Shown here: one piece after another, positions 7,235 through 58,554 of the stretch
Position numbering within the stretch: position 1 is the stretch's first letter
Layout of the letters: the number at the start of each line of letters is the position of its first letter
NCBI GenBank assembly: GCA_965221305.1
Contig: OZ244881.1
Location: 3,670,091-3,734,090 of the forward strand
Source of the DNA: Vicinamibacterales bacterium
GTDB taxonomy: Bacteria > Acidobacteriota > Vicinamibacteria > Vicinamibacterales > UBA8438
Direction: 5' to 3'
Length of the DNA stretch: 64,000 nt
Notes under the pieces: generated by a model
The model's input: the letters and a program-made list of their open reading frames with translations, nothing else
What the model was told of the DNA's origin: nothing
The model's database searches: none
Translations under genes and position numbers: made by a program

Positions 7235-8449
7235 ATGGGCATCCTGAAGATGGCTTGGCGCAACATCGGCCGCAACCGCCGGCGGACGGCGGTCACGGTG
7301 GGCGCGATGACTCTCGGGCTCTTCGCCATGGTGGTCTACATGGCGATGCTGGAGGGGATGCTGAACGACATGGAGGAGACCATCGTCGAGGTCGACCTCG
7401 GCGACCTGCAGATCCATGCGCCGACCTGGCTCGACGACCCGTCGCTCTACACGGTCGTCGACGACGTCGACCGGCTGCTCGGCGAGCTCGAGGCGGCGGG
7501 GTTCCGGGCGAGCGCCCGCCTCGTCGGGGCGGGGCTCGCGGCCGCCCACGACTCGGCCGCCGGGGCGTCGCTGCGCGGGGTCGACGTCGAGGCCGACGCG
7601 CGCGTCAGCGTCATCTCGTCCCGGCTCGCCGAGGGGGAGTGGCTCGACGAGGGCGATCCGTCCGGCGTCGTGGTGGGACGTCGGCTCGCCCGCTCGCTCG
7701 GTCTCGCCCTCGGCGACGAGCTGGTGGTGCTGAGCCAGGCCACCGACGGCGGCATCGCGAACGATCTCTACACGGTGCGCGGCATCCTCGGCACGGTGAG
7801 CGACGGCGTCGACCGCGCCGCCGTCTTCCTCACGGAAGGGGCTTTCCGCGAGCTCTTCTTCATGCCGTCGGGCGCGCACGAGATCGTGGTGCGCAAGCCG
7901 GACGAGCTCGATCTGGACGCGGCGCTGGAAGCGGCGCAGGGCTTGGCCCCCGGCCTCGACACGCGGTCGTGGCGGTCGCTGGTGCCGACCATCGCGACCT
8001 ACCTCGACTCGGCCCGCGCGGCGATGGGCTTCGTCTCCGCCGTCGTCTACATCGTCATCGCCATCCTCATCCTCAACGCGATGCTGATGGCGGTGTTCGA
8101 GCGCATCCGCGAGTTCGGGGTCCTGAAGGCGCTGGGGGTCGAGCCGCGCCAGGTCGTGGCCCTCATCTTCGTCGAGAGCGCGCTGCAGACCGGTCTCGCC
8201 TTGGCGGCGGGCATGAGCCTCACGGTCCCGATGCTCTGGTACCTGAGCGAGTTCGGCATCGACACCGGGGCGCTCGGCGGGGTCACGGTCATGGGATCGA
8301 CGTTCGCGACGGTCTGGCGCGCGTCGGCGTCGTCGGCCGCCTTCGTCATCCCGACGATGACCCTGGTCGTGCTGGTCCTCCTGGCGGTGGTCTATCCCGC
8401 CCTGAAGGCGGCCCGGATCAGCCCGGTGGAGGCGATGCGGCATCAGTGA
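7235..8449 (+). CDS. ABC transporter permease, FtsX/LolC-LolE-like (first of two)
   Basis: 404 aa. N-terminal MAWRNIGRNRRRTAVTVGAMTLG, a large periplasmic loop, then three C-terminal TM helices. ERIREFGVLKALG motif of the FtsX/MacB family. Confidence 0.85.
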   Translation: MGILKMAWRNIGRNRRRTAVTVGAMTLGLFAMVVYMAMLEGMLNDMEETIVEVDLGDLQIHAPTWLDDPSLYTVVDDVDRLLGELEAAGFRASARLVGAGLAAAHDSAAGASLRGVDVEADARVSVISSRLAEGEWLDEGDPSGVVVGRRLARSLGLALGDELVVLSQATDGGIANDLYTVRGILGTVSDGVDRAAVFLTEGAFRELFFMPSGAHEIVVRKPDELDLDAALEAAQGLAPGLDTRSWRSLVPTIATYLDSARAAMGFVSAVVYIVIAILILNAMLMAVFERIREFGVLKALGVEPRQVVALIFVESALQTGLALAAGMSLTVPMLWYLSEFGIDTGALGGVTVMGSTFATVWRASASSAAFVIPTMTLVVLVLLAVVYPALKAARISPVEAMRHQ

Positions 8450-8512
8450 GCCCGGCGCGGCCGGCGTGGCCGGTGGTTCCGGTGGAGGCGATGCGGCGAC
8501 GTGGGCCGGCGC
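8411..8512. repeat. Degenerate tandem duplication of the FtsX-1 3' end, spanning its stop codon
   Basis: ccggtggaggcgatgcggc occurs at 8423-8441 (codons PVEAMR of the gene) and again at 8479-8497 (period 56). The flanks are similar but diverged. Confidence 0.6.
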
Positions 8513-8702
8513 CCCCGCGAGCAGGGGCCGGAGCCGATGGCGCACACAGCCATTGCGCGTAGCACGCCGGCGCCTCCGCGGGCCGGGGCCGGAGGACGGC
8601 GGGGTCGGGAAGGCGCGGTCTCCGCCGTGTTCGTTGTGGCGGCGTTCGGCGGCGGGTGGGCGAGGTCTCCCGGGGCTTGGAAACGAAGGAAGGCTGGGCG
8701 CG

Positions 8703-9950
8703 ATGAAGGGCAGCAGTCTCGCGAAGATGGCTTGGCGCAACCTGTGGCGGAACCGCCGCCGCACCGTCATCACCCTCTCGGCCATCGTCTTCGGCGTCTT
8801 CCTCGCCGTCTTGATGATGGCGATGCAGGACCGGAACTGGGCCGACATGATCCGGCTCGCGGCCCGGCTCGGTGCGGGTCACGTGACGTACCAGCACCCG
8901 GAGTACCTCGACAGCCCGACCCTGTCGCGCCCCGTCGAGGGGACCGACGAGCTGAAGCGCCTCGCCGAGGGCAACCCGCGGGTCATCCGGGTCGTCGAGC
9001 GCATCACCGGGTTCAACATGCTGTCGACGGCGCGCGAGAACGTCGGCGCCGGCTTCATCGCCGTCTCGCCCGAGGACGAGGACGAGGAGACCCTGTCGCT
9101 CCTCGAGGCGGTGGTCGAGGGCGAGTTCTTCGCATCTTCCCATGACCGCGGCATCATCCTCGGCGAGAGGCTCGCCTCGAACCTGGACGTCGAGCTCGGG
9201 TCGAGGGTGGTCTACACCCTCACCGACAGGGAGGGCGAGATCGTGAGCGACCTCGCCCGGGTCAGCGGCATCATCCGCACCGGCTCCCCGAGCGTCGACG
9301 GGAGCATCTGCCTGCTGCCCATCGGCGCCCTGCGCGAGACCATCGGCTTCGCGCCCGACGAGGCCATCCAGGTCGCGGTGTTCGTCGACGATCAGCGGGT
9401 CACCGACGGCGTCGTCGCCGACCTCGCGGCGGGGGCCCCCGCCGGCGTCGCGGTGCTGCCGTGGCACGAGCTACAGCCGGATCTGGCGGTGTTCATCGCC
9501 ATGAAGGTCGGCGGCGCGAAGGTCATGATGCTGTTGCTCGCAGTGCTCGTGGCCGCCGGCATCTTCAACACCCTCTTCGTCAGCGTGATGGAGCGCCTGC
9601 GCGAGTTCGGCATCATGCTCGCGGTCGGCTTCAGCCCATCGCAGCTCTTCCGGCTCGTGATGATGGAGAGCGCGTGGCTGGCCGTCGTCGGTCTCGCCGG
9701 AGCCGCTCTCGTCAGCCTCGGGCCGTACCTCTATCTCGCCTCGACCGGCATCGACGTGTCGGGCCTGATCCCGGCCGAGCAGATGGAGGTCGCCGGTGTC
9801 GGCATGTCGACCGTCATGCAGGTCGGCATCTACGGCGAGAGCGTGGCCCTCATCGGTTTCTCGGCCCTCGCCGCCATCATGCTGTCGGGGGTCTATCCGG
9901 CGTGGCGGGCGGGGCACGCCGACCCGGTGGAGACGATTCGGCTGGTCTAG
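8703..9950 (+). CDS. ABC transporter permease, FtsX/LolC-LolE-like (second of two)
   Basis: 415 aa from ATG 8703 (MKGSSLAKMAWRNLWRNRRRTVITLSAIVFG). ERLREFGIMLAVG motif and C-terminal YPAWRAGHADPVETIRLV. The track ORF start at 8466 is upstream read-through. Confidence 0.85.
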   Translation: MKGSSLAKMAWRNLWRNRRRTVITLSAIVFGVFLAVLMMAMQDRNWADMIRLAARLGAGHVTYQHPEYLDSPTLSRPVEGTDELKRLAEGNPRVIRVVERITGFNMLSTARENVGAGFIAVSPEDEDEETLSLLEAVVEGEFFASSHDRGIILGERLASNLDVELGSRVVYTLTDREGEIVSDLARVSGIIRTGSPSVDGSICLLPIGALRETIGFAPDEAIQVAVFVDDQRVTDGVVADLAAGAPAGVAVLPWHELQPDLAVFIAMKVGGAKVMMLLLAVLVAAGIFNTLFVSVMERLREFGIMLAVGFSPSQLFRLVMMESAWLAVVGLAGAALVSLGPYLYLASTGIDVSGLIPAEQMEVAGVGMSTVMQVGIYGESVALIGFSALAAIMLSGVYPAWRAGHADPVETIRLV

Positions 9951-10260
9951 GTCCAGGCCTCTGCCCCAGGGCCGCTGGAGCGGACCGCAGGGGGAACATG
10001 CTGTCAGGGGTCTATCCGGCGTGGCGGGCGGGGCACGCCGACCCGGTGGAGACGATTCGGCTGGTCTAGGCCTCTGCCCCGGGCCGCTGGAGCGGACCGC
10101 CGGGGCGGGGCACGCCGACCCGGTGGAGACGATTCGGCTGGTCTAGGCCTCTGCTACGGGCCGCTGGAGCGGACCGCCGGGGCGGGGCACGCCGACCCGG
10201 TGGAGACGATTCGGCTGGTCTAGGCCTCTGCCCCGGGCCGCTGGAGCGGACCGCCGGGGG
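9879..10260 (+). repeat. Four-unit tandem array made of the permease 3' coding end, its stop codon and a downstream GC hairpin
   Basis: Units are 9879-9997 (119 bp), 9998-10106 (109 bp), 10107-10183 (77 bp) and 10184-10260 (77 bp). ggggcacgccgacccggtggagacgattcggctggtctag is present four times, with stops at 9948, 10067, 10144 and 10221. Each unit ends in gccccgg...ccggggc with an inner ccgct/agcgg pairing. Confidence 0.9.
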
Positions 10261-10456
10261 AAGGGGCAATCGGAGCGGCCGGCGACGATGTGCGGGGCGG
10301 CCCGGGGACCGCGGCGGACCGCCGGTGCGGCGAACCGTCGAGGGCGGGTGCGGCCCGTCGATGGCGAGTGCGGCCCGTCGGGGCGGCCGATTTTCGACGG
10401 AGTTCGGCCCCCGATGCCGGCGGTCCGGCTTCGGAACACGGGGGTGGTGGTTCGTG

Positions 10457-11164
10457 ATGAGCAGCGAGAACGGTACCGATCCCGTCGTGGAGCTGACGGA
10501 GGTCGCCAAGGTCTACCAGCAGGGCGATCAGCAGGTCGAGGCGCTGCGCGGGCTCACGATGGCGGTGCGGAGCGGCGAGTTCACCGCCATCTGCGGCCCC
10601 TCCGGATCGGGCAAGACGACCGCCCTCAACCTCATCGGCGCGCTGGACACGCCGACCTCCGGCACCGTGCGCCTGGAGGGGGCCGATCTCGGCACGCTCT
10701 CCCGCCAGGCGCTGAGCCATCTGCGCCGCGACCGCATCGGCTTCGTGTTCCAGGCCTACAACCTGCTGCCGATCCTCAGCGCCTACGAGAACGCCGAGAT
10801 CGTCATGGCGGTGCAGGGAGTGGCCGAGGCCGAGCGCCGGCCGCGGGTCATGGAGCTGCTCGCTCGCGTGGGGCTCGAAGGGATGGAGGATCGGCGCCCT
10901 TCCGAGCTCTCGGGCGGGCAGCAGCAGCGGGTGGCGATCGCGCGGGCCATCGCAGCGGGGCCGGCCGTGGTACTGGCCGACGAGCCGACCGCCAACGTCG
11001 ACTCGACCACCGCCGACGCGCTGCTCGAGATGATGGAGAGCCTGAACCGGGAGCAGCAGGTCACGTTCCTCTTCTCGACCCACGACCCCCGCGTGATGGC
11101 GCGGGCGCGGCGCCTCATCCGTCTCGTCGACGGTCGCATCGAGAAGGACGAGGTCCGCGGCTAG
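10457..11164 (+). CDS. ABC transporter ATP-binding protein (LolD/MacB-type)
   Basis: 235 aa from ATG 10457 (MSSENGTDPVVELTEV). Walker A GPSGSGKTT, signature LSGGQQQRVAIARA, Walker B VVLADEPT, H-loop STHD. Confidence 0.9.
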   Translation: MSSENGTDPVVELTEVAKVYQQGDQQVEALRGLTMAVRSGEFTAICGPSGSGKTTALNLIGALDTPTSGTVRLEGADLGTLSRQALSHLRRDRIGFVFQAYNLLPILSAYENAEIVMAVQGVAEAERRPRVMELLARVGLEGMEDRRPSELSGGQQQRVAIARAIAAGPAVVLADEPTANVDSTTADALLEMMESLNREQQVTFLFSTHDPRVMARARRLIRLVDGRIEKDEVRG

Positions 11165-11397
11165 TTGACCGCCCCAGAGAGAAGCTGCCCGTGTCGCGGG
11201 GCGCCTCCGCAGCGTTTGCCAGCGAAAACCAGCGAAAGGACGGCAAAGGAAGCTCTCGGCGCGCCGACCGAGAACCCGCCGATCCCGCCGCCGCCGGCGC
11301 GTGCGGGGGCGCCACCCGCCGGGGACTGCGACAGTCCACTAGCGATGGCGCAATGGTGGGCTTGATCTGACTAGTGTGACCAGTTACCATCGCGCCC

Positions 11398-11676
11398 ATG
11401 AGCTTGGTGTACTCGACCTATGACGCCAAGGCGAGATTCTCCGAGGTATTGCGGCACGTCCGCGCCGGGCGGACGGTGACGGTGTCTCACCGGGGAGAGC
11501 CGGTGGCCGAGATCCGTGCCATCCAACCGGGCCCGAAGACGATCGACCAACGGCTGGACGACCTCGAGCGCCGCGGCGTGCTGGTGCGCGGCTCCGGCCG
11601 GGCGCGGAAGCCGCTCGCGCCGGTGGCGAACCGGCCCGGCGCCCTGAAACGGTTTCTCGACGAGCGTAGCGAGTGA
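11398..11676 (+). CDS. Type II antitoxin, Phd/YefM family
   Basis: 92 aa. N-terminal YSTYDAKARFSEVLRHVRAGRTVTVSHRGEPVAEI is the canonical Phd/YefM fold signature. Its stop overlaps the toxin start (GTGA). Confidence 0.8.
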   Translation: MSLVYSTYDAKARFSEVLRHVRAGRTVTVSHRGEPVAEIRAIQPGPKTIDQRLDDLERRGVLVRGSGRARKPLAPVANRPGALKRFLDERSE

Positions 11677-12053
11677 CCGCCGCGTACGTGGATACGTCCG
11701 TGCTCGTCGCCGTTTCGTTCAACGAGAAGAACTCGACGGTCCTGGCTACCCGGCTGAGCGAGTTTTCGCGCCTGGTGGCGTCGAACCTCGTCGAGGCTGA
11801 GCTGCGAGCGGTGTTCGCGCGAGAGCGATGCCGCTTCTCGCAGGATGTCGTGGCCGACATCGAGTGGATCCTGCCCGACCGTCGGTTGTCCGCCGAGATC
11901 TCGACCGTTCTCGAAGCCGGCTACGTGCGGGGCGCCGACCTGTGGCACCTCGCGACGGCCCTCTACGCGGCCGGCGCACCGGGGGACATGGGGTTCATCA
12001 CGTGTGACCAGCGGCAGGGCCGGATCGCGGCCGCGCTCGGATTCCAAGTCTGA
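11673..12053 (+). CDS. vapC: PIN-domain ribonuclease toxin, VapC family
   Basis: 126 aa. Acidic PIN residues are in place (YVDTSVLV, NLVEAEL, GADLWHLATA, FITCDQRQ). GTG start at 11673 gives a 4-nt overlap with the antitoxin. Confidence 0.8.
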   Translation: MTAAYVDTSVLVAVSFNEKNSTVLATRLSEFSRLVASNLVEAELRAVFARERCRFSQDVVADIEWILPDRRLSAEISTVLEAGYVRGADLWHLATALYAAGAPGDMGFITCDQRQGRIAAALGFQV

Positions 12054-12128
12054 CCGACTCGCTTCGGCTCTCCCTTCGAGATGGACGGATACGCGCGAGG
12101 TTCCGTTCATCATGGGCGTTTCGTGTGA

Positions 12129-12213
12129 AGGGGCGTTTCGTCCGCCCTTGGGTCCGGCGTTTCCTGACACAAGGGGTGTTTCGTCCAGCCTTGGGCCCGG
12201 CGTTTCCTGATAC
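12129..12213. repeat. Two tandem 42-43-bp direct repeats immediately upstream of tctC
   Basis: aaggggcgtttcgtccgcccttgggtccggcgtttcctgacac (12129-12170) and aaggggtgtttcgtccagccttgggcccggcgtttcctgatac (12171-12213). An extra gggcgtttcgt lies at 12114-12124. Confidence 0.75.
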
Positions 12214-12222
12214 AGTGCGTTC

Positions 12223-13281
12223 GTGCGACGGCGTCCCGCGACCGCGCGAGAACGAAGACCGGCCCGGCCGGGACGGCTGCCCGGCTTCTGCCTCGCGGCG
12301 GCGTTGCTCGCCGCCTGCGCCGGCGGAGCGGGCCCGGAACGGCCCGCGGACGCGCTGGCGCCGACGGCGGCCGGGTTCCCGCGGGGGCCGCTGACCCTGC
12401 TCGCCCCCGCCAATCCCGGCGGCGGTTGGGACCAGACCGCCCGCCAGGTCCAGCAGGTGTGGACCGAGGCGGGCATCCTCGGGGTGCCGGTCGAGGTGGT
12501 CAACCGCGGCGGGGCCGGCGGCACCATCGGGCTCGCGGACGTCGTTACCCGCCGGCGCGGGGACCCGCACACCGTGATGGTCTTCGGGCAGGTCATGCTG
12601 GGGTCCATCCGCACCAACCGCTCGCCCGTCTCGCTCGATGACACGGTGCCCCTCGCGCGGCTGCTGGACGAGTACGAGGTGATCGCAGTGCCCGTCGGAT
12701 CGCCTCACGAGACCCTCGCCGACCTCATGGAGGACTTCCGCGCCGAGCCCGAGCGGGTGAGCTGGGCCGGGGGATCGGCCGGGGGCATCGACCACATGCT
12801 GGCCGGCCTGCTCGCCCTCGCCGCCGGGGTCGATCCCACCCGCGTGAACTACGTGGCCCACTCGGGCGGCGGCGAGGCGGCGGTGGCGGTGATGGGGGGG
12901 CACGTCACCGCGGGCATCTCCGGCTTCGGCGAGTGGAAGGCCCACGCCGAGGGCGGCCGCATGCGGGTGCTCGCGGTGTCGTCGGCGGAGCGCATCCCGG
13001 GGAGTGACGTCCCGACCATCCGCGAGAGCGGGCTCGACGTCGTGATCGCCAACTGGCGGGGGGTTCTCGCGCCGCCCGGCACCGACGACGAGACCCGCGC
13101 GTGGCTCATCGAGGCGCTCGCCCGCCTGCGGGCTTCCGACGCTTGGCGGGACATCCTTCGCCGGAACGACTGGGAGGACAGCTTTCTCCCCGGCGCCGAC
13201 TTCGAGCGCTTTCTCGAGGCGGAGATAGCGGCCGCCGACGAGATCCTGCGCTCGATCGGCCTCCTGGGGCCGGCGGAGTAG
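12223..13281 (+). CDS. tctC: Tripartite tricarboxylate transporter substrate-binding protein (TctC/Bug family)
   Basis: 352 aa, GTG start. Lipoprotein-like signal (LAAALLAACAGG). NPGGGWDQTAR and VVNRGGAGGTIG motifs typical of the Bug/TctC family. Confidence 0.85.
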   Translation: MRRRPATARERRPARPGRLPGFCLAAALLAACAGGAGPERPADALAPTAAGFPRGPLTLLAPANPGGGWDQTARQVQQVWTEAGILGVPVEVVNRGGAGGTIGLADVVTRRRGDPHTVMVFGQVMLGSIRTNRSPVSLDDTVPLARLLDEYEVIAVPVGSPHETLADLMEDFRAEPERVSWAGGSAGGIDHMLAGLLALAAGVDPTRVNYVAHSGGGEAAVAVMGGHVTAGISGFGEWKAHAEGGRMRVLAVSSAERIPGSDVPTIRESGLDVVIANWRGVLAPPGTDDETRAWLIEALARLRASDAWRDILRRNDWEDSFLPGADFERFLEAEIAAADEILRSIGLLGPAE

Positions 13282-13287
13282 CCGGCG

Positions 13288-13731
13288 GTGCCGCGCATGA
13301 GCCGGGACCGGGCGTTCGCGGCGGCGGCCCTCGCCGCGAGTGGCGGCTATCTCGCGGCCGGCCTCTCCATCGCCGCGCCGGCCGGCGGCTACGACCTCGT
13401 CGGCCCCCGCACGTTCCCGCTCGCGATAGGCGTGGGCCTCGCCTCGAGCGCGGTCCGGATCGCGTGCGGCTCCGGATCCCCGTCCGACCCGGCCGTGATC
13501 GACTGGCGCGCGGCGGCAGTCGCAGCCCTCGTCTTCCTCGCCTACCTGGCGTGCCTCGGCTTCCTCGGCTACCCCCTGGCCACCACTGCGTTCATCGTGG
13601 CCGAGTCGCGGGCCCTCGGCAGCCGTGCCTGGCGCCGCGACCTCGCGGCCGGCGCGTTCATCGCCGCCGCCGCGTTCCTGGCGTTCCGGCTGCTGCTCGG
13701 CATCCGCCTGCCGGCGGGGCCCTTCGGCTGA
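13288..13731 (+). CDS. tctB: Tripartite tricarboxylate transporter small membrane protein TctB
   Basis: 147 aa with four predicted TM helices, placed between tctC and tctA. GPRTFPLAIG motif. Confidence 0.75.
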   Translation: MPRMSRDRAFAAAALAASGGYLAAGLSIAAPAGGYDLVGPRTFPLAIGVGLASSAVRIACGSGSPSDPAVIDWRAAAVAALVFLAYLACLGFLGYPLATTAFIVAESRALGSRAWRRDLAAGAFIAAAAFLAFRLLLGIRLPAGPFG

Positions 13732-13732
13732 G

Positions 13733-16468: not shown

Positions 16469-16496
16469 GGGGCTTCCGCCGAGGCGTGCGGCGTCG

Positions 16497-17557: not shown

Positions 17558-19666
<2,109 letters not shown>

Positions 19667-19727: not shown

Positions 19728-19771
19728 CTAATCCAGCTCGGCGAGCTCCCTAATCCAGCTCGGCGAGCTCC
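19728..19771. repeat. Perfect 22-bp tandem duplication spanning the M14 peptidase stop codon
   Basis: ctaatccagctcggcgagctcc occurs at 19728-19749 and again at 19750-19771. The second copy encodes ...ELAELD-stop of the minus-strand gene. Confidence 0.9.
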
Positions 19772-31601: not shown

Positions 31602-32600
31602 ATGACATCGCGATCCCTCGTGGTCACCGTGGTCCTGGCGGCGCTGCTGGCGCCGGCGGCGCTGCTGGCCCAGCGCGCGACCCGCATCCAGCTCGGGTCG
31701 ATCCTGCCCGCCAACTCCATCTGGGACCGGTCCCTGAAGGAGATGGCGGTCGAGTGGCGCGAGGAGACCGACGGCCGAGTGCAGCTTCGCGTGCAGAGCG
31801 GGGCGTTCCGCGACGAGGCGGCGCTGGCCCGCCGCCTGAGGCGGGGCCGCCCGCAGGCGGCCGTCTTCGGGCTGCCCGGGGACATCCACGAAGCGTTCAG
31901 CGTCCTGAACATCCCGTTCTTCTTCGAGTCGGACGAAGAGGTGTTCCACGTGGTCGAGGCGATCACCCCGACCTTCGAGCGCATCCTCGCCGACGAGGGG
32001 ATGGTGCTGCTGAACTGGGGCCACGCGGGTTGGGCGCACTTCTTCACCGAGAGCCGGGTGGAGACCCTCGACGACCTGCGGCGGATGAAGGTGTTCACGG
32101 CGGCCGGCGACGACCGGATGCTGCAATGGTACAAGGAGAACGGGTTCGACCCCCAGCCGCTGGCCGTGACCGACGTCCTCCTCGGCCTGAACACCGGGCT
32201 CATCAACGCCCATCCGAGCCCGCCCTATGTGGCCCTGCTGTTCCAGTGGTTCGACCAGACCCCGTTCATGCTCGACGTGCCTCTCGCCCCCGTGCTCGGG
32301 ATCACGGTGATGGCGGAGCGCACCTGGAACCGCATCGATGCCGAAGACCGGCAGGTGCTGCTGGCGTCGGCCAAGCGGCTCGAGCAGGAACTCCTGCGCG
32401 ACGTCGCCGCGCAGGAGCGCGACTCCATCGAGGAGATGAGGCAGCGCGGCCTCACCGTGGTCGAGATCGACGACGCCGGGAAGACGGCGTTCCGGGCCGT
32501 CGCGGCCGAGATGACCGCGTCGTGGCGGGGGACGCTGATTCCCGCCGACGTCTACGACATGGCGGTCGAGGCGCGGGACAGCTTCCGGGCCGGCCGCTGA
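31602..32600 (+). CDS. TRAP transporter substrate-binding protein (DctP family)
   Basis: 332 aa. Signal peptide. DctP-like blocks (NIPFFFESDEE, LLNWGHAGWAHFFT, MKVFTAAGD, LNTGLINA). Confidence 0.8.
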   Translation: MTSRSLVVTVVLAALLAPAALLAQRATRIQLGSILPANSIWDRSLKEMAVEWREETDGRVQLRVQSGAFRDEAALARRLRRGRPQAAVFGLPGDIHEAFSVLNIPFFFESDEEVFHVVEAITPTFERILADEGMVLLNWGHAGWAHFFTESRVETLDDLRRMKVFTAAGDDRMLQWYKENGFDPQPLAVTDVLLGLNTGLINAHPSPPYVALLFQWFDQTPFMLDVPLAPVLGITVMAERTWNRIDAEDRQVLLASAKRLEQELLRDVAAQERDSIEEMRQRGLTVVEIDDAGKTAFRAVAAEMTASWRGTLIPADVYDMAVEARDSFRAGR

Positions 32601-32620
32601 TGCATGGGGCCGGCCGCTGA
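32587..32620. repeat. 14-bp duplication (period 20) spanning the dctP stop codon
   Basis: gggccggccgctga at 32587-32600 ends in the dctP TGA. It recurs at 32607-32620, separated by tgcatg. Confidence 0.8.
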
Positions 32621-36033: not shown

Positions 36034-36125
36034 CGGCGTCGGGGGCGATTCCGCCGGGTTCGCGCGTCGCTCCCGGCGGTGACACCGGCGCCGCCGCGCG
36101 CCGTTGCCGGCATGCGCTGCGGGCC

Positions 36126-36505
36126 GTCCGACGGCGATGACGCCCGATGCGTCAGCCGGGAGCCGCCGCGGTCCTGCTGCAGGTGCGGGCGTGGTCGGGA
36201 GGATGTGGCGGTTCCGCACGCGGCAGCGGTCGCCGTCCGCCGGCGATGACGTCCGATGCGTCAGCCGGGAGCCGCCGCGGTCCTGCTGCGGGTGGTCGAG
36301 GGTGCGGGCGTGGTAGGCGGAGGACGTGGCGGTTCCGGACGCGGCAGCGGTCGCCGTCCGACGGCGATGACGTCCAATCCAATCTAATGCGTCAGCCGGG
36401 AGCCGCCGCGGTCCTGCAGCAGGTGGTCGAGGGTGCGGGCGTAGTAGCGGAGGATGTGGCGGTTCCGGACGCGGTAGCGGTCGCCGTCGACGGCGATGAC
36501 GCCCC
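36126..36505. repeat. Tandem array of degenerate copies of the acyltransferase 3' end (three units plus a partial fourth)
   Basis: atgcgtcagccgggagccgccgcggtcctgc starts at 36147, 36256 and 36387; the last is the real gene end (...SRLTH-stop). Periods are 109 and 131 bp. Each unit ends gtcc/gtcg-(a/c)cggcgatgacg. A partial unit lies at 36126-36146. Copies carry substitutions and indels. Unit B ends in tccaatccaatctaa. Confidence 0.9.
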
Positions 36506-37684: not shown

Positions 37685-38977
37685 CTAGCGTGGCGCCGTG
37701 ACGATCGCCGGACGGGTCAGGCGCACCGTCAGCCTCGATCCGGGCGGCAGCGTGGCCGGGTTGGCCTGCCCGTTCAGGGCCGCCGCGGTTCCGCCCGCGG
37801 CCCCGATCGAGCCGCCGATGGCGGCGCCGCGCTCACCGCCGAAGATGGCCCCCAGGATGGAACCGGCCACCGCCGCGCCGCCGATCTTCGCGACGCTGTC
37901 GCCGCCTGGGGACTCGCCCTCCCGGTAGATCGTCTCGGTGGACAGCGTCATCTCGGTCCCGTCGTCCATCAGCAGCGTATGGAAGCGGACCCCGAGCCGG
38001 GAGGCGGAGCGGAGCCGGCCGCCCGTCTCGACGAGGACCACCGATCCCCGCATCCGCGTACCCGAGGGAATGGCTACTCGCGAGGCGACAAGCACGTCGC
38101 GGATCACCCGGGCCTCGACAGGGTCCTCGACCCTCGCCGTGCCGGTGGACACGGCGGTGTCGATCTGGATGCCGATCACCGAGTCGGCGGCGATCTCCAG
38201 CTCGTCGAACGCGGGCCACGAGGGCGTTGCGACGCCGGGGCCGACGGTTCGCGCATCGAGGAGGCCGGCGCCGGTCGGCGGCCGAGGGTGCGGCTCGACC
38301 CGGGGCGGCGCCGCGGCCGCCGTCGCCCCGACCGACCCCGCGGCCCTCGAGTCCGCCGTCCTCGCGGGCCCGTCCGCCCGTACCCATCCATCCACGACGG
38401 GAAGATCGCCGCGGGTCGGGCGCGGCTCGGCGGCCGCCAGTCGGGGGTCGACCGGGGGGCTCGTTTCCGGCGCGGTGTCGGGCGCCCGCTCCGGTTCCGG
38501 TTCGGGCCTCGCGGGCGGCGTGAACGGGGCGGCGACGGGCCGGGGCCTTCGGTGCGGCTCCGCCTCGATGATCCTCTCCGCCGGCGCTGCCGCGCCGTCG
38601 CGGGTCGTGGAGGCCGTCGGCTCGGAGGCCGGGGGGGCGGAGGCCTCGCGCCGAGGCGCCGGGGGCGGCGGCTCACGCCGCCGCGGCTCCCGCGGCTCGG
38701 TCGGGGGCTTGGCTGCGGCCGGTTCGACCTCGACCTCCGTCCCGATCGCGGCCCGCGAGTTCTCGGGCGGCGCCTCTGCAGCGGGAGGCGGTTCGGCGGA
38801 CCCGATCGGGTCGGTGGACGCGACCGGCTCGGCGGACGCGACCGGCTCGGCCGCCGCGGCCGGGGCGGACTCGGGAGCGAGCTGGATGGCGTGCCGCACG
38901 GCGAGATAGGAACCGACACCGGCCGCGGCGACGGCGGCGATCGCGATACCTGCAGCGGCGGCTATCTGCTTCGACAT
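37685..38977 (-). CDS. Membrane-anchored Pro/Ala-rich protein with conserved C-terminal beta-rich domain and glycine-zipper tail
   Basis: 430 aa from ATG 38977, preceded by gaggaaagga. N-terminal TM helix (IAAAAGIAIAAVAAAGVGSYLAV). About 250 aa of P/A/E-rich low complexity. C-terminal IPSGTRMRGSVVLVE ... and GGAAVAGSILGAIFGGERGAAIGGSIGAAGG. Confidence 0.7.
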   Translation of the reverse strand: MSKQIAAAAGIAIAAVAAAGVGSYLAVRHAIQLAPESAPAAAAEPVASAEPVASTDPIGSAEPPPAAEAPPENSRAAIGTEVEVEPAAAKPPTEPREPRRREPPPPAPRREASAPPASEPTASTTRDGAAAPAERIIEAEPHRRPRPVAAPFTPPARPEPEPERAPDTAPETSPPVDPRLAAAEPRPTRGDLPVVDGWVRADGPARTADSRAAGSVGATAAAAPPRVEPHPRPPTGAGLLDARTVGPGVATPSWPAFDELEIAADSVIGIQIDTAVSTGTARVEDPVEARVIRDVLVASRVAIPSGTRMRGSVVLVETGGRLRSASRLGVRFHTLLMDDGTEMTLSTETIYREGESPGGDSVAKIGGAAVAGSILGAIFGGERGAAIGGSIGAAGGTAAALNGQANPATLPPGSRLTVRLTRPAIVTAPR

Positions 38978-39200
38978 CGGGGTCGTCCTTTCCTCTCGCG
39001 CATGATAAAGCAATTGTCATGCCCGGCCGCGTGTATTCGCGGCCCGAGGCCCCGCCGGCGATCCCGGCCCGGTGTCGTTATCGGCCGGTCGGCCGTTTTT
39101 CCAACCGCCCGCCTGTGCTCCCGGCGTGCGCCGGCGCCCATCGGGCGCGGTGCAACGCGGGGCTTCGCCACGGGCTCGTGGCGGTGGCCGTCATCGGGGG

Positions 39201-39311
39201 GTGACAGTCGGCGGCGCGAAGGGGACAGTGTGGGGTTCGCCGGCGGCGTGTTCGGCACGGCGGGCAGGGCCGGGTGACGGACAGTAGGCGGCGCGGAGGA
39301 GACAGTGTGGG
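39201..39311. repeat. Direct repeat of about 35 bp (period ~75) whose second copy overlaps the thiO translation-initiation region
   Basis: gtgacagtcggcggcgcgaaggggacagtgtggg (39201-39234) versus gtgacggacagtaggcggcgcggaggagacagtgtggg (39274-39311). Confidence 0.65.
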
Positions 39312-40634: not shown

Positions 40635-41438
40635 ATGGAACAGGTTCACTTCGTCACCCCGTCCCGCCGGTGGGCGGAGACCCTCCGGCCGGATGCCTGG
40701 TTGACGCAGCCCCTCGGCGTCTTCTTCGTGTTCACGACGTTCATCGTGTATTCCACTTGGGCGGCGTTCCAGGGCGAGTACTATCACTCGGGGCCGTATC
40801 TCTCGCCGTTCTATTCGCCCGAAATCTTCGGAGACTCGCCGCACAGCCTCCTGGGCCCGCGACCCGGCTGGTGGCCGAGCCCGGTGCCGTTCTCGCCCGC
40901 GTTCCTGATCCTGTGGGCGCCGGTCGGCTTCCGGCTGACCTGCTACTACTATCGCGGCGCCTACTACAAGGCGTTCTGGCACGACCCGCCGGCGTGCGGG
41001 GTGGGCGAGCCGCGCTCGAGCTACTGGGGCGAGAACTCGTTCCCGCTGATCGTGCAGAACCTGCACCGCTACTTCCTCATCTTCGCGCTGGCGCTCCTGG
41101 TGTTCCTGAGCATCGACGTCTGGAACGCGCTGTGGTTCGAGGATCCGGCGACCGGCGCCGTTTCGTTCGGCGTCGGGGTCGGGACGCTCGTCCTCGCGAT
41201 CAACGTCGTCCTGCTGGGCGGTTACACGCTGGGCTGCCACTCGTTGCGCCATCTCGTCGGGGGCGGGCGCGACCTCATCGCCGGGCTGCCGATCCGCCGG
41301 CCGACCTACGACTGCGTGAGCTGCCTGAACCGCCGGCACATGCTCTTCGCCTGGATGAGCCTGGTCTGGGTCGGGTTCTCCGACATCTACGTCCGACTGT
41401 GCGCGATGGGCATCGTTACGGATCTCCGACTCCTGTAG
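40635..41438 (+). CDS. sdhC: Succinate dehydrogenase / fumarate reductase membrane anchor (single-subunit cytochrome b type)
   Basis: 267 aa polytopic protein directly upstream of sdhA and sdhB. Conserved His residues in TM helices (YYHSGPY, NLHRYF, GCHSLRH). Gene order C-A-B as in B. subtilis-type SQR. Confidence 0.75.
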   Translation: MEQVHFVTPSRRWAETLRPDAWLTQPLGVFFVFTTFIVYSTWAAFQGEYYHSGPYLSPFYSPEIFGDSPHSLLGPRPGWWPSPVPFSPAFLILWAPVGFRLTCYYYRGAYYKAFWHDPPACGVGEPRSSYWGENSFPLIVQNLHRYFLIFALALLVFLSIDVWNALWFEDPATGAVSFGVGVGTLVLAINVVLLGGYTLGCHSLRHLVGGGRDLIAGLPIRRPTYDCVSCLNRRHMLFAWMSLVWVGFSDIYVRLCAMGIVTDLRLL

Positions 41439-41467
41439 CAGCCCGGTGACTCCTGTAGCAGCCCAGT
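41428..41467. repeat. 20-bp tandem duplication spanning the sdhC stop codon
   Basis: gactcctgtagcagcccggt (41428-41447, contains the sdhC TAG) is followed directly by gactcctgtagcagcccagt (41448-41467). One mismatch. Confidence 0.9.
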
Positions 41468-41699
41468 GGCGAATCCGTGCGTTGCATGGCGCCCGCAGGG
41501 CGCCAGCGGATCGGCGAGGCGGGATGCGTCACCGCCCGGATGCCGCCGAGACTTCCCCACGGGCGGCCGGGGCGCGACCGCCGCGCCCGTCTGTTTCTCC
41601 GCGAGAAGGGCGGGCGCGGCCGACCGCGGCGCCGTCGGGCGATGGACCACTGGCCGACCGCGGCGCTGCCGGGTCGCCATTAGATGAAGATTGCCGTCA

Positions 41700-44307: not shown

Positions 44308-44587
44308 GGGGCGGGCCCGCGGCATGGGGGCGCGCGGTTCGGCGACCGGGAGGGCGGTCGGGCATCGGCCGCTTGCACCGGACCGCGGACACGGTCGGCG
44401 CCGGCCGACGCATCCTGGTCCGCCGTAATTCCGCGCCCGATCGAGAACCCGCCGGCTGCCGGTCACGGATTCGCCCGGGCGGTTGCGGCGCCGGCCGGCG
44501 TCAAGCACCCGGTCGGGGCCGTCGGACGCCGCACGTTGGTCGCGCACGTTGGTCGACACCGTCGCCCGCGTGGACCACCGCCGTGAC

Positions 44588-46313: not shown

Positions 46314-46679
46314 TGCCCCCGATCATCCGCGTCCGCCGCGAAGATATCAACCGGCCCGCATCGGCGCGCCCCGCCGTGTTCCATCCTCCGCCTCCGTCGG
46401 GAGTGCGCCGAGCCGGTGGGGCGGGCCGCCCGCGGCGGCGCCCGTCGGATCGTTGCGTCCGTCGCGCCTCGATCATCCCGTTCGCCGCGAGGGCCCGGGC
46501 TGCCCGCAGCGGCGCCCGTCGGATCGCTCGCGGCCTCGCGAGCCCACTTTCCGCCCCGCTGCTGCGCCGGGGCCGCATTCGAGCCACCCTCGGACGTCGT
46601 CGCGGGAGGGCTCGGGCGCCAGCCAGGATCGGCATGCGGTGATATCGTGTCGGCTCCGGTCGATCTCTCAGAGGGGAGC

Positions 46680-49349: not shown

Positions 49350-49379
49350 GGCGGAGAACCGTCATGGAATGGTCGTTCA

Positions 49380-54811: not shown

Positions 54812-55547
54812 GCGAATGAGCTTCCGGAATCTCCTGGTCGTCTTGCTGCTGTGCGGTGCATGTGACCTGGTCGAGGTCGATCCGCGCGATAGCGAGCCTC
54901 CGTTGACTACCACCAGCCAGGCCGCGATCGAAGCCTTGGCGTCGCACAAGCCGTTTCCGGATTACCCGGCTCGGTCCGTCGAGAACGGCTCGGCGGGCGT
55001 CGCCGTGGCTTCGATCCTGATCGGTGCCGACGGACGGATGGAGCGGGTCGATGTCCTCGAGGCGCCGGATGCGGACATCGGCAAGGCCATGCTGGACGCC
55101 CTCGGGCGCTGGGCGCTGCCACCGCACCTCAACACGGATCACCCGCGCGGTCCGTTCAAGGTCTCTGCCACGATGGTGTTCTATTTCCTGATCGAAGCCG
55201 GGGAGGCCCGGGTGATGAGCGGCCCGGCTATGGCGGAGGCGCGCGGCGCTGATCACTCGTCGGCCGGCAAGCTCCGTCGCATCGGCGAAGCCGAGTTCGA
55301 CGCGTTGCTGGAGTCGGGTGACGCGGTCGTCATCGATCCACGCGAACGCGAGTTCTACGCGCTCGGCCACCGGGACGGTACGATCAACATCCCGGTTGAC
55401 GAGCTGCCGTTACGGGCGATCGTGGAGCTTCCGGCGGCCCGCGTCGTCGTCATCGACTGCTACCGTGGTTCGGAATCGATGTGCGAGATGGCGGGACGGC
55501 TATTGCGACGGGTTCGGTCGGACGTCGCGGTCTTCGTCCACGACTGA
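54804..55547 (+). CDS. Lipoprotein with TonB C-terminal-like domain fused to a rhodanese-like domain
   Basis: 247 aa from ATG 54804, preceded by agggag; overlaps the ADOP stop by 8 nt. Lipobox LLLCGAC. TonB_C-like block (FPDYPARSVENGSAGVAVASILIGADGRMERVDVLE ... ALGRWALPP). Rhodanese-like block (AVVIDPREREFYALGHRDGTINIP ... VVVIDCYRGSES). Confidence 0.65.
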   Translation: MSKRMSFRNLLVVLLLCGACDLVEVDPRDSEPPLTTTSQAAIEALASHKPFPDYPARSVENGSAGVAVASILIGADGRMERVDVLEAPDADIGKAMLDALGRWALPPHLNTDHPRGPFKVSATMVFYFLIEAGEARVMSGPAMAEARGADHSSAGKLRRIGEAEFDALLESGDAVVIDPREREFYALGHRDGTINIPVDELPLRAIVELPAARVVVIDCYRGSESMCEMAGRLLRRVRSDVAVFVHD

Positions 55548-55603
55548 GGAACGAGTAGGGCGCTGCGCTTTCTGGCATCAGCCGAAGGCCCCGTCACGGC
55601 GGG

Positions 55604-58459
55604 TCAGGCCCGGGCGCCTTGCAGCCCGCCGTCGCGGTCGCCGGTCTCGGCGCGATGCGCGCTCTCGCCGTCGGTCGTCAGAACGTCGCCTGTGCGAGAC
55701 GGCGGTGTCGCAGGCGTCTCGTCGGGGCGCGCCACCGTGCCCGCCGGTGGCGGCGCCGCGCGTGCAGGGGCCGCGGCCGGGCTCGCACTCGGTGTCGGAG
55801 CGGGGACGGAACGCGTCTGCGGCGCCGACGGGGCGTGCTTCCGTCGCTCTCCCTGCGCCGTCGCCTCCGGCAGCGGCATCAGTCCGAATGCCTCCGCGGT
55901 GTCCGCGATGGCCGCGTCGACGGCCGCGCCGGCGCGCGCCGATTGCCGCAGGGTGCGCGTCGCCCAAGCCGCGAGCAGCGCCGCGGCGCCGGCGATCCAC
56001 GGCCAGTACGGGGCCGCGCCGGCGGCGGCGCTGAGCGCGCCCAGCGCGACGGATGCGGCGAGGAGCCACAGCTTGGGCGTGGGCCGCAGGCTCCGCGCGA
56101 GCCGGACCAGGCATCGACCCTCCTGATGCTCCTCGACGAGCACCCGCAGGTGCAGCCGGGCCCAGGGGTTCAGGCCGATGCTGATGTCGCGGTCCGCCTG
56201 CCACCCGTCGTCCGTCTCCACCGTCCGAACCTCGCGCGTTCGTTCGAGCCGGGCCGTCAGGTGCGCGAGCAGCGCCTCTCCCGCGATCCAGGTCTCGCTC
56301 CAGTAACGGCGGGGCGGCGTGTGGCGCGACAGGTCGGCCCACAAGCCCCGGTCGGCGCCGGTCGCCGCGGTCGGGGCGCGCCGGCCGTTCGCGGGAGCGC
56401 GCAGGACCTCGGGCGGGGACATCGATCCCCGCAGGCGACCCCACGCGCGCGCGAGAGGCTGGATGAAGTACAGCCCGGCGATGCGCGATCGATAGAGGAT
56501 GCGGCTCAGGCGGCGCGGGCGTCGAACCAGCGGCGGCAGGCCCTCGATGTCGGTCACGAGGGCGTAGCGAACGCAGCGGGCTACGGTCGTCCCGAGGGCG
56601 CCCGCGCCCACCGCCAGCAGCGCGAGGGCCAGTCCGATCTGGTTCGTCAGCAGGGTGAGGGCGCCGAATCCCATCAGGCCCGCCGCAGCGACCTGCCAGC
56701 GGGCGGAGTGCGGCATGAACGCGAACGGGTAGGTGTCGATGGCGTAGACGGACGGGAACGGTGCGGTCCCCCAAGTCCCGCTGTTGACCCGTGCCCGGGT
56801 GAGCGAGCGGTGAAAGGGCAGCGGTCCGTAGATGCGCCCGCGCCAGCCGATGTGCAGCCCCTGGAACTGGTCGGGATGGTGGGGCTTGAGCCACGACTCG
56901 CCTTCCCCGTAGCCGACCTGCTGGCGCCAGTACGCGCGCAGCGACGCGCGGTGGCGGTGCCAGACGAGCGCGGACGGCGCGAACCCGATCTTCCAGCCGC
57001 GCGCCTGCAGGCGCCAGCAGATGTCGACGTCGTCGCCGGCGCGCAGGTAGATGGGGTTGAACCCGCCCACCGCGAGCAATGCCTCGCGGCGGAACGCCAT
57101 GTTGCAGCCGGGCACGTGCTCGGCGATGCGGTCGTCGAGCATCACCTGGGTGGGGCTGCCGGGCGCGCGCGCGATGCACTGGGCCATCGGGGGGTCGTCG
57201 CCGGGGACGAGGTTGGGGCCGCCGGCGCCGACCACGTCCGAGGTCAGGAACGGCCGGACGAGGTGCGTCAGCCAGTCGGGGTCGACGCGTACGTCGCCGT
57301 CGGTATAGGCGACGATCTCGCCGGCGGCGTGCTCGAGCCCGACGTTGCGGGCCGCGCTCAGGCCGCCGTTGGGGATGTCGATGACCTCGACCGACGCGTG
57401 TCGGCGGGCGATGTCGCCGGTGGCGTCGCTCGAGCCGTCGTTGACGAGGATGATCTCGTAGTCGGGATAGCTCAGGTTCCCGATGGACGTGAGGCACTCG
57501 TCGATGGTGGCGGCTTCGTTGTAGGCGCACACCACCACCGAGATCTTCGGCCACGTCCGCCGCTCGGCCTCGGGGAACGGCGCCTCCGCGAACGCGCGGG
57601 CGACGTCGCCGAGCGCCGGCTTCGGCCTGCGCGCCGCGTCGACGAGGCCGAACGCCCAGTCGTCGACCGGCCGTCCCCCCCGCCACCACTCGTCGGTCCA
57701 CGCGAACACGACGGCCCCGCACGCGCCCTCGGAGAACGCGGTGCGGACGTGCATGGCTGCGATCGCGGCCTGGCCGTCCTCGCCCTCCCGCCGACTGTCC
57801 GCCCCCGCCTCGGCCAGCAGGAGGGGGCGGTGCCCCGCGAGATGCTGCAGTCGGGCGAGGTAGCGCCGCAGGTCCGACTCCGCGTGCAGGTAGACGTTGA
57901 ATGCGCAGACGTCCAGGAACGGCAGCGACAGGTACTCGGTCGGCGGGTAGTTCACGTAGGTCAGCAATGCCTCCGGCGCCGCCGCCTTGACGTCGTGGTA
58001 CAGCTCGCGAATGAAGCGCTCGACCCGGGCCTGCCCGTGCCAGCGGACGATGGGGGCGGGAATCTCGTTGCCGAGCGCGAAGACGAGCGCGGCGGGATGG
58101 TCGGACAGCTCGCGCACGCGCGCGATGATGTCCTCGCGGATGCCGCGGCAGAGGTCGGGGTCGTCGAGGAACGCGACGTGCTGCGGCCAGGGCAGGCCGA
58201 TCATCATGCGCAGCCCGTGACGCGCCGCCTCGTCGAGCACCCGGGGCGCGGGCACCGTGTAGGTGCGGACGGTGTTGAAGCCCGCCTCCCGCATCCGCGC
58301 GAAGTCCGCCGAGACCACGTCGGGCGCGGGAAACTGGTCGCCCGAGGCGTCGGGTGCGAACGTGCCGTAGGAGACGCCCTTCACGAGAAACCGATCACGC
58401 CCGAGGGCCAGGCACTTGCCGTCGACGGCGGCGCGCGTCTCGGGGTCCGCGGTAGTCAT
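55604..58459 (-). CDS. Fusion protein: glycoside-hydrolase-like TIM barrel + family 2 glycosyltransferase + polytopic/low-complexity C-terminal region
   Basis: 951 aa from ATG 58459 (GTG 58510 is an alternative). GH-like N-terminus (VKGVSYGTF, GFNTVRTY, ALGNEIP, AWTDEWW). GT2 core (ISVVVCAYNEA, ILVNDGSSD, YTDGDVRVD, AGDDVDICWRL, YWRQQVGYGEGE). Then TM helices and an A/P-rich tail. Confidence 0.8.
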   Translation of the reverse strand: MTTADPETRAAVDGKCLALGRDRFLVKGVSYGTFAPDASGDQFPAPDVVSADFARMREAGFNTVRTYTVPAPRVLDEAARHGLRMMIGLPWPQHVAFLDDPDLCRGIREDIIARVRELSDHPAALVFALGNEIPAPIVRWHGQARVERFIRELYHDVKAAAPEALLTYVNYPPTEYLSLPFLDVCAFNVYLHAESDLRRYLARLQHLAGHRPLLLAEAGADSRREGEDGQAAIAAMHVRTAFSEGACGAVVFAWTDEWWRGGRPVDDWAFGLVDAARRPKPALGDVARAFAEAPFPEAERRTWPKISVVVCAYNEAATIDECLTSIGNLSYPDYEIILVNDGSSDATGDIARRHASVEVIDIPNGGLSAARNVGLEHAAGEIVAYTDGDVRVDPDWLTHLVRPFLTSDVVGAGGPNLVPGDDPPMAQCIARAPGSPTQVMLDDRIAEHVPGCNMAFRREALLAVGGFNPIYLRAGDDVDICWRLQARGWKIGFAPSALVWHRHRASLRAYWRQQVGYGEGESWLKPHHPDQFQGLHIGWRGRIYGPLPFHRSLTRARVNSGTWGTAPFPSVYAIDTYPFAFMPHSARWQVAAAGLMGFGALTLLTNQIGLALALLAVGAGALGTTVARCVRYALVTDIEGLPPLVRRPRRLSRILYRSRIAGLYFIQPLARAWGRLRGSMSPPEVLRAPANGRRAPTAATGADRGLWADLSRHTPPRRYWSETWIAGEALLAHLTARLERTREVRTVETDDGWQADRDISIGLNPWARLHLRVLVEEHQEGRCLVRLARSLRPTPKLWLLAASVALGALSAAAGAAPYWPWIAGAAALLAAWATRTLRQSARAGAAVDAAIADTAEAFGLMPLPEATAQGERRKHAPSAPQTRSVPAPTPSASPAAAPARAAPPPAGTVARPDETPATPPSRTGDVLTTDGESAHRAETGDRDGGLQGARA

Positions 58460-58554
58460 GGGAAGAATACGGGCGTGGCGCGGTTCTCCTCGCGCCCGAG
58501 CGTCAGCCACTCACCGTCGACGGCGGCTCGCGTCTCGGGGACCGGCGTCGTCAT
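58398..58554. repeat. Tandem duplication (62-bp units, period 95) of the 5' end of the GH-GT2 gene, including its start codon
   Basis: Unit 1 (58398-58459) encodes MTTADPETRAAVDGKCLALGR. Unit 2 (58493-58554) encodes MTTPVPETRAAVDGEWLTLGR. Unit 2 opens a 32-codon ORF (58456-58554) whose TGA overlaps the main ATG (ATGA). Confidence 0.85.

Follow-up and report, generated by a model that had tools for sequence, protein, structure and literature searches.

Why should short direct duplications in a bacterial genome so often lie across the stop or start codon of a gene? The question is raised by a 64,000 nt stretch of Vicinamibacterales DNA (Acidobacteriota; Vicinamibacteria; UBA8438), here called the window, which covers positions 3,670,091-3,734,090 on the forward strand of contig OZ244881.1 (assembly GCA_965221305.1) and has a G+C content of ~71%. 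A first-pass annotation had noted at least eight tandem duplications in it whose unit contains a gene boundary, and had suggested a high rate of duplication combined with a selective filter. We consider it probable, at roughly 0.6, that the intergenic DNA of this lineage is built up fast by two insertion processes and that the association with gene boundaries is a pattern of survivorship. One process would give blunt tandem duplications of 13-131 bp in about 2.0 copies (class T). The other would have a period of 71-77 bp and duplicate a target of ~36 bp around an unrelated insert of ~36 bp (class I). This 73-bp repeat-insert-repeat class is the most interesting component, and may be a natural form of off-target integration by the CRISPR machinery.

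Relatives, controls and repeat detection

With the FtsX-2 protein (8703-9950) as query we obtained 53 loci (1.07 Mb, labelled L001 etc.) from one-genome-per-species collections, nearly all of them in metagenome-assembled genomes of Vicinamibacterales/Vicinamibacteria. The closest relatives have 97% amino-acid identity in the FtsX-2 protein and ~91% nucleotide identity across shared genes. The 18 loci with 88-97% FtsX-2 identity (379 kb) were treated as the close clade, and 691 kb as more distant Vicinamibacterales; 350 kb of high-GC replicons, including Gemmatirosa and Kitasatospora, served as controls. Genes were called with a home-made codon log-odds caller trained on the window and the relatives' sequences, and start codons are therefore approximate. 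Pfam agreed with the gene names for two FtsX/MacB permeases, an ABC ATPase, M14 peptidase, DctP, DctQM, M20 peptidase, acyltransferase, DAO (thiO-like), SdhB iron-sulphur protein and GH2-GT2. The sdhC product had no Pfam match, and some of its homologues are named succinate dehydrogenase in public sources. No cas genes, DNA-repair genes, tRNAs or Rfam families were found in the 64 kb of the window.

Repeats were detected with Tandem Repeats Finder (TRF), with an ungapped direct-repeat search at offsets of 10-400 nt, and by eye. The plain density of TRF arrays was rejected as a yardstick for how unusual the window is, since the Gemmatirosa and Kitasatospora controls hold equally many TRF arrays, mostly of 11-21 nt, multi-copy or in-frame. 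As TRF counts do not discriminate, we used instead an event count that is resolved by offset and takes account of coding sequence (CDS).

Local duplications in the window

The window contains 14 local direct-repeat clusters at offsets of 10-400 nt, 12 of them outside CDS and six with a stop codon. Six equally wide bands at far offsets gave 2, 1, 1, 1, 0 and 0 clusters (mean 0.83), so that the near offsets are clearly enriched (P=4e-13). The repeats in the window are the following.

2021..2118: intergenic tandem duplication, 50 nt x 2.0, 85% identity, no junction microhomology
8423..8497 (+): FtsX-1 3' end, perfect 19-nt repeat (8423-8441 and 8479-8497), offset 56
8505..8594: FtsX-1/FtsX-2 spacer, repeat-insert-repeat, 29-nt repeat (90% identity), 32-nt insert, period 61
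9878..10262 (+): array at the FtsX-2 3' end, 119-nt duplication, then a 77-nt unit x 3 (97% identity)
10335..10386: intergenic tandem repeat, 20 nt x 2.7
12128..12214: intergenic tandem duplication, 43 nt x 2.0, 88% identity
19728..19771 (-): M14 peptidase stop (19750-19752), perfect 22 nt x 2.0, no microhomology
25334..25528 (-): GNAT acetyltransferase stop (25461-25463), old 104-nt duplication, 76% identity
29433..29537: repeat-insert-repeat, 37-nt repeat (92% identity), 31-nt unrelated insert, period 68
32587..32620 (+): dctP stop, possible 20-nt duplication resting on a 14-nt core, GGGCCGGCCGCTGA
36123..36504 (-): acyltransferase 3' end, unit of ~120-131 nt x 3.2, 86-95% identity, true stop 36384-36386
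38789..38863 (-): Pro/Ala-rich low-complexity CDS, in-frame 18 nt x 4.2, 6-residue peptide repeats of the (AEPVAS)n type
39203..39311: upstream of the DAO/thiO-like gene, repeat-insert-repeat, ~36-40-nt repeat (indel), ~37-nt insert, period 77
41428..41468 (+): sdhC stop (41436-41438), 20 nt x 2, also covering the first bases of an element like a miniature inverted-repeat transposable element (MITE)
41618-41673: further local repeat
44530..44555: perfect intergenic duplication, 13 nt x 2.0
46422..46526: divergent intergenic region, repeat-insert-repeat, 31-nt repeat, ~38-43-nt insert, period 74
58398..58554 (-): GH-GT2 gene start, 62-65 nt, 84% identity, offset 95, including the ATG and ~20 codons
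58542..58596: neighbouring tandem repeat, 22 nt x 2.5

TRF and reading bore out five of the boundary duplications in the first-pass annotation. The array at FtsX-2 (reported as 9879-10260) has TAG in every copy, the true stop being 9948-9950. The M14 stop (19728-19771) and the sdhC stop (41428-41467) stand as described. For the acyltransferase (36126-36505), 16/16 homologues examined end in ...TH* like the first window copy, and this copy is hence the true gene end. At the GH-GT2 start (58398-58554) the upstream copy (58456-58554, -) is an intact upstream open reading frame (uORF) of 32 codons, MTTPVPETRAAVDGEWLTLGREENRATPVFFP*, whose TGA overlaps the true ATG (ATGA), so that the duplication has made a leader-peptide-like arrangement.

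The other three proved weaker or of a different kind. At FtsX-1 (8423/8479) the 19-nt repeat is perfect, but the true stop codon (8447-8449) sits between the copies; as only residual similarity follows the 19 nt (by eye), we read this as an old, decayed duplication. At dctP the 14-nt core doubles as a palindrome-rich GGCCGGCC motif, and by our own estimate ~1 match of such length is expected by chance in the window, which makes it not distinguishable from chance. The supposed duplication of the thiO start region (39201-39311) is repeat-insert-repeat rather than tandem, and its repeats stop short of the ribosome-binding site and the ATG (39324), so the start codon is not included. As for the tandem repeats reported in intergenic DNA, those at 2021, 10335, 12128 and 44530 hold, while 29433 is repeat-insert-repeat. 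The in-frame 18-nt repeat within a CDS is real and extends over 38789-38863. The GNAT duplication had been missed, and 8505-8594, 41618-41673, 46422-46526 and 58542-58596 are likewise additions to the earlier list.

In L002 a 7-nt tandem duplication (ATGCGGC ATGCGGC, ~9960-9995) lies in the last codons of FtsX-1 and appears to shift the frame. FtsX-1 of this locus would then appear to end at a TGA that overlaps the FtsX-2 ATG.

The units are unrelated to each other, as had been stated before. Window-wide repeat and motif scans detected no shared family, and each unit copies its local sequence; we therefore rejected a dispersed repeat family (repetitive extragenic palindromic sequences, REP; mycobacterial interspersed repetitive units, MIRU; or MITE) as the source of the duplications. 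The REP-like motifs GGAGTCTGCGCCG and TAGCAGCCCGTGG were rejected as a common source since they are too rare in the window.

The duplications as evolutionary events

That the duplications might be artefacts of assembly or polishing finds some support in two events with perfect copies (19728 and 44530). Yet copy identities in the window span 76-100%, and substitutions and indels separate most copies. Single-copy empty sites are present in relatives for the FtsX-2 end (53/53 relatives), the 43-nt unit at 12128 (L004, L005 and L013), the sdhC end (L088) and the acyltransferase end (L054 and L091). Like events are found in contigs of relatives with MEGAHIT- and SPAdes-style names and in long-read assemblies, hence in independent assemblies of different technologies. 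If these names stand for k=141 or k=127 assemblies, an A-B-A structure of ~110 nt would fit within one k-mer. Further, some events are common to several species, as an event at offset 112-127 in six (L001, L002, L009, L010, L013 and L047). The diverged copies, the empty sites and the varied assembly types together identify the duplications as evolutionary events and not assembly stutter, as the first-pass annotation had argued; an artefact is very unlikely as their source, and we give it hardly any weight.

The events are young, and some places have been struck repeatedly in different species. L042 has a 19-nt duplication of its own that includes the FtsX-2 stop. At the start of the TctA gene, orthologous to position ~13745 of the window, where the window is single copy, three relatives carry 2-5 decaying copies upstream of the intact gene, with periods of 73 and 96-98 nt:

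L003 11940-12310: array at the TctA start
L011 14470-14660: array at the TctA start
L013 18620-18990: array at the TctA start

Event density in the clade

Non-coding events number 1.9 per 10 kb in the window, 0.95 in the close clade and 0.33 in the more distant Vicinamibacterales; the ~3x difference between close and distant relatives is significant (P=5e-5). The controls gave 13 non-coding events, 11 of which have a period of 10-19, and the sdh regions orthologous to the window in other lineages gave 0-1 events. The raised density is a property of the clade, with the window at its high end. The high duplication rate proposed earlier is thus upheld, the density of the lineage being above that of distant relatives and of other high-GC DNA.

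Even among closely related species the spacer between FtsX-1 and FtsX-2 differs greatly in length (L040 and L002, ~2-25 nt; window, 253 nt; L001, ~350 nt), and its sequences are unrelated:

Window 8450-8702: FtsX-1/FtsX-2 spacer
L001 9645-9998: FtsX-1/FtsX-2 spacer
L002 ~9975-9995: FtsX-1/FtsX-2 spacer
L040 ~9986-9987: FtsX-1/FtsX-2 spacer

Intergenic DNA in these species thus turns over far faster than genes do.

Blunt tandem duplications

Head-to-tail copies were recognised by TRF or the ungapped search at 2021, 9878, 10335, 12128, 19728, 25334, 36123, 41428, 44530 and 58542. The units of pure tandem events measure 11-131 nt (13-131 in the window) and are present in ~2.0 copies. In the two-copy events junction microhomology is just 0-1 nt, which argues against classical slipped-strand mispairing; this mechanism is not supported for class T. 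At the junction of the 77-nt FtsX-2 unit a short CGGGG is common to both ends (by eye), which would suit secondary amplification. We speculate that class T arises from staggered breaks that are filled in and then joined end to end, and that some of the events (FtsX-2, acyltransferase) were later amplified by unequal exchange or slippage.

A transposon target-site duplication or excision footprint was rejected, since pure tandem units vary over 11-131 nt. We also rejected an intrinsic terminator or structured 3' untranslated region (UTR) element: compared with shuffled sequence the tandem units have fold z values of -2.2 to +1.4, mostly near 0, and there were zero Rfam matches. The same result speaks against the functional 3' UTR hairpins offered as an alternative in the first-pass annotation.

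The repeat-insert-repeat class

The offset histogram of non-coding repeats in Vicinamibacterales has a sharp peak at 70-79 nt, with 22 of the 68 events in this bin and 2-6 in the neighbouring ones (P=3e-10). The controls contained zero non-coding events between 50 and 140 nt, and zero class I events (P=0.008). Most of the peak (18/22) is non-tandem: an insert of 31-41 nt is flanked by two copies of a repeat that measures 32-42 nt, with a mode of 36-37, and is often perfect, which is an A-B-A and not an A-B-A-B structure. Repeat/insert lengths include 37/34, 37/36, 36/36, 36/36, 36/40, 35/37, 41/31 and 42/32. The inserts had no match elsewhere in the window or in the relatives' sequences.

Nucleotide alignments to relatives with empty sites identify two of these events as insertions. 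In L010, 32 new nt and a second copy of 42 nt are present that are absent from L009, L012 and L050, and L004 has 71 extra nt that are absent from L006, L013 and L002. By structure only, the window members of the class are:

29433: repeat/insert 37/31
39203: repeat/insert ~36/37
46422: repeat/insert ~36/38 by eye, the repeat reaching ~36 nt once mismatches are allowed

A second geometry is seen in the feature at 8505 (29/32). In their resemblance to coding sequence the inserts stand above intergenic DNA (P=0.005) and below host genes, which fits fragments captured from elsewhere.

The geometry of class I is one that an integrase with a fixed ruler would leave, and a stagger fixed at ~36 nt with a foreign insert of spacer size is characteristic of Cas1-Cas2. 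The best candidate process is therefore off-target spacer integration by a Cas1-Cas2 complex with a repeat of ~36-37 nt and spacers of ~35-37 nt. Two strand attacks would occur one repeat length apart, and gap filling would then duplicate the repeat. CRISPR types with 36-37-nt repeats fit the unit range of 71-77 bp. Class I has the geometry of off-target Cas1-Cas2 integration; the link itself we regard as tentative and somewhat short of an even chance. It is possible, though in our view less likely than not, that the clade preserves a dense fossil record of natural off-target integrations (~15-30/Mb of neutral DNA) made by an enzyme of CRISPR adaptation or by some ruler integrase of the Cas1 type that is related to it.

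An orphan CRISPR-like array was seen in L046 (16000-16275), with an LRR-reprolysin gene on one side and an M14 peptidase gene on the other. It has five repeats, CCGCCCTTCGCGCGCGCCGGGAGGCG (26-29 nt), and four unique spacers of 32-35 nt, with periods of 66, 61, 61 and 61, and no cas genes adjoin it. The repeat had no Rfam match and the spacers no IMG/VR match. It shows that in this clade growth of an array-like kind takes place at a distance from cas genes.

Stop codons, start codons and survivorship

To obtain expectations, duplications were placed at random in a simulation and only those not wholly within a gene were retained. Of 12 window events, six span a stop against 2.4 expected (P=0.017), and one spans a start against 2.6 expected. 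The relatives (1.07 Mb) gave 10 events at a stop, 15 at a start, 3 at both and 30 in intergenic DNA, and the geometry simulation gives a stop-spanning share of 8-35%, set by unit length. The stop excess of the window is accordingly not repeated in the relatives, a general excess at stop codons is not supported, and the stop bias of the window is a small-sample effect or at most mild.

Within CDS, the period of tandem repeats in the relatives is a multiple of 3 in 72/85 cases. Together with the surviving mixture of intergenic and boundary events this fits a filter for duplications that leave one intact gene. Events within genes would destroy them and be lost, whereas those that are wholly intergenic or span a stop or start would survive; boundary-spanning events persist because one whole gene copy remains. 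We infer from this that the boundary-straddling is survivorship and not targeting. The high duplication rate with a selective filter suggested earlier is the best account of the boundary pattern, except that it had been framed for tandem duplications and the class I events are not tandem. Repeated strikes on one intergenic site in different species, among them the FtsX-1/FtsX-2 spacer and the TctA start, are to be expected when a locus offers only ~20 such regions.

The element at the sdhC stop and its family

The MITE-like insertion at sdhC begins exactly at the TAG stop. It is present at this stop in the window and L088 and absent from L089 and L090. The family has ends TAGCAGCCCGTGGYGAAACCCCGCGTTGCACCGAGA... 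/ TAGCAGCCCGTGG..., usually as inverted pairs ~160 nt apart, often after CTAG or TAG. A loose regular expression for the family returned mostly noise, and only clear copies were used:

Window 41436..~41600: insertion at sdhC, ~130-170 nt, end motif TAGCAGCCCRGTGGCGAA..., right boundary approximate
Window ~39120-39180 (-): MITE-like copy
L012 18564/18745: MITE-like copy
L019 2040/2200/11247/19863: MITE-like copies
L031 4220/4381: MITE-like copy
L038 11247/11408: MITE-like copy
L045 11247: MITE-like copy
L053 17172/17333: MITE-like copy

In L019, L038, L045 and L053 the FtsX-2 stop is TAG and coincides with the element, while it is TGA in most other relatives. In a genome of 71% GC an element that targets TA or CTAG would be expected to land on stop codons.

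A short REP-like hairpin element, GGGGCTCGGGGCGCAGCCCCGTCTGA, was observed in L041 (8687-8772) with 22-nt direct repeats on either side; marine relatives (L058, L059 and L061) contain it many times over.

Alternative explanations

Several observations weigh against the two-process reading, and in particular against its Cas1-Cas2 component. The window is denser in events than the close clade (P=0.02-0.04, though the genomic regions compared differ), and geometry does not fully account for its stop excess or its stop:start ratio of 6:1. Duplicated class I targets are no more hairpin-prone than random intergenic DNA, and no conserved motif was seen in the class I flanks (by eye). BLAST gave no significant match of the inserts to INPHARED phages, and there was no exact match in IMG/VR, both databases being sparse for this phylum. 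By our own estimate, to reach the implied class I density of ~15-30 per Mb, integration would have to go off target roughly as often as spacers are taken up normally. The window and the relatives' loci showed no cas genes and no canonical CRISPR array, the GC of the inserts equals intergenic GC, and three pure tandem duplications with a period of 75-77 nt exist (L003 10203, L007/L047 11315 and the FtsX-2 array of the window), so the period might reflect something other than repeat plus spacer. These last points, together with the lack of protospacer matches in the sequences examined, would suit a single break-repair process that makes all events without CRISPR machinery, in which staggered breaks are filled in and joined end to end, at times with filler DNA captured between them, the 73-bp class being a by-product of some other ruler, e.g. 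a protein footprint. Both classes are moreover blunt and without microhomology, and the same clade is enriched for both. But filler capture should give broad lengths, whereas repeat and insert are both tightly clustered at ~36 nt while pure tandem units spread over 11-131 nt, and the inserts are not copied from nearby sequence. A stagger of 36 nt is not known to us from any repair pathway, and we consider this explanation unlikely though worth keeping in mind.

The first-pass annotation had also considered an element that targets gene ends, and in its general form this would be a mechanism or mobile element aimed at stop or start codons, with the duplications as its footprints. The excess of stop-straddling events in the window speaks for it, as do the MITE-like family, which sits exactly on TAG stops (sdhC in the window, FtsX-2 in the four relatives named above), and the repeated strikes at the FtsX-1/FtsX-2 spacer and the TctA start. 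However, starts are struck as often as stops in the relatives, half of the events are purely intergenic, units of 13-131 nt match no fixed target-site duplication and have no sequence in common, and repeated strikes are expected with so few intergenic regions. The part of the suggestion that concerns an element abutting TAG stops is correct, but the element explains an insertion at sdhC and not the duplications, and we find aimed footprints improbable. The repeats could also be functional and kept by selection as 3' UTR hairpins or terminators, uORFs or translational-coupling units. The GH-GT2 uORF and the GC-rich inverted repeats of the FtsX-2 unit are in line with this, and in mycobacteria the arrangement of MIRU units lets small ORFs overlap the genes beside them. 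Against it, shuffled sequence folds as well as the units do, the events are restricted to lineages and missing in close relatives that have the same genes, and extra copies decay, with identity down to 76%; we consider function very unlikely. Survivorship of the products of two insertion processes remains our preferred explanation, and its selective filter and the molecular mechanisms of both classes are what we infer from the patterns described.

Neighbouring genes

GC is lower (64%) in a patch at 2001-4000 of the window, where the gene at 2426-3511 encodes a type I restriction HSDR_N-like domain. The Phd/YefM-PIN toxin-antitoxin pair at 11398-12053 lies immediately upstream of the 43-nt duplication at 12128.

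Implications

Even if only the ordinary part of the explanation holds, the locus is a clear case of selection making duplications look aimed at stops and starts. It also indicates very fast turnover of intergenic DNA in an abundant and poorly known soil lineage, one spacer going from ~20 to ~350 bp at ~91% nucleotide identity. Should the Cas1-Cas2 proposal be true, it would mean natural off-target integration at a scale for which we found no report, and much intergenic DNA would owe its growth to the integrase, which would also supply wild bacteria with new proto-arrays. The off-target rate, the choice of site and the birth of CRISPR arrays would then be open to direct study in the wild. Annotation will flag such loci as 'questionable CRISPRs', and gene callers can be misled by the extra copies of gene ends.

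Comparison with known systems

Literature searches on tandem duplications straddling stop codons and on MIRU gene overlaps returned nothing usable. The MIRU and exact tandem repeat (ETR) loci of mycobacteria are tandem minisatellites, or variable number tandem repeats, at gene junctions, and the MIRUs form a dispersed family of related sequence. Like them, the window units are head-to-tail, tens of bp long, intergenic, in high-GC DNA and often touching gene ends, and copy number at FtsX-2 and the acyltransferase has been raised by secondary amplification. Unlike MIRU, each window unit copies its own local sequence, and most loci have exactly two copies.

The sdhC element resembles the MITEs of the IS630/Tc1-mariner group that target TA or CTAG, in having inverted ends, often lying after CTAG or TAG, and sitting on stop codons. 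It differs in that it accounts for one insertion and for the gene-end association but not for the duplications, and no transposase was identified for it.

Integrases that insert into gene ends (tRNA genes, or icd in the case of e14 or phage 21) leave duplicated gene 3' ends. A second copy of a gene 3' end downstream of the intact gene is found here too, but the window copies adjoin each other without an intervening island, and their unit lengths vary. In L047 the last ~416 nt of a fumarate hydratase gene (5510-5924) recur ~1 kb downstream (6909-7324) with 95% identity, which resembles the remains of an element integrating into a gene 3' end.

In view of the mycobacterial loci, the statement of the first-pass annotation that it knew of no description of such a pattern is too strong. 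The same follows from off-target Cas1-Cas2 integration (10.1101/148544, PMC6698737). Off-target ('non-canonical') integration by Cas1-Cas2 duplicates its target and gives neo-CRISPR units (Nivala, Shipman & Church 2018, Nat Microbiol 3:310, as cited in 10.1101/148544, PMC7054753 and PMC6698737). According to these papers, it was shown in vitro and in E. coli over-expressing Cas1-Cas2, and natural evidence is circumstantial and concerns two species (10.1101/148544, PMC7054753, PMC6698737). Class I is like the neo-CRISPR units in having an unrelated insert of spacer length and a target of repeat length duplicated on both sides, with a sequence that differs at each site, and its unit length of 71-77 bp falls in the repeat plus spacer range of CRISPR. 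It is unlike them in that no linked cas genes, matching canonical array, protospacer adjacent motif or protospacer accompany it in the sequences examined. In contrast to the E. coli over-expression cases, we are here dealing with ~18 independent natural events in 1.1 Mb of wild genomes.

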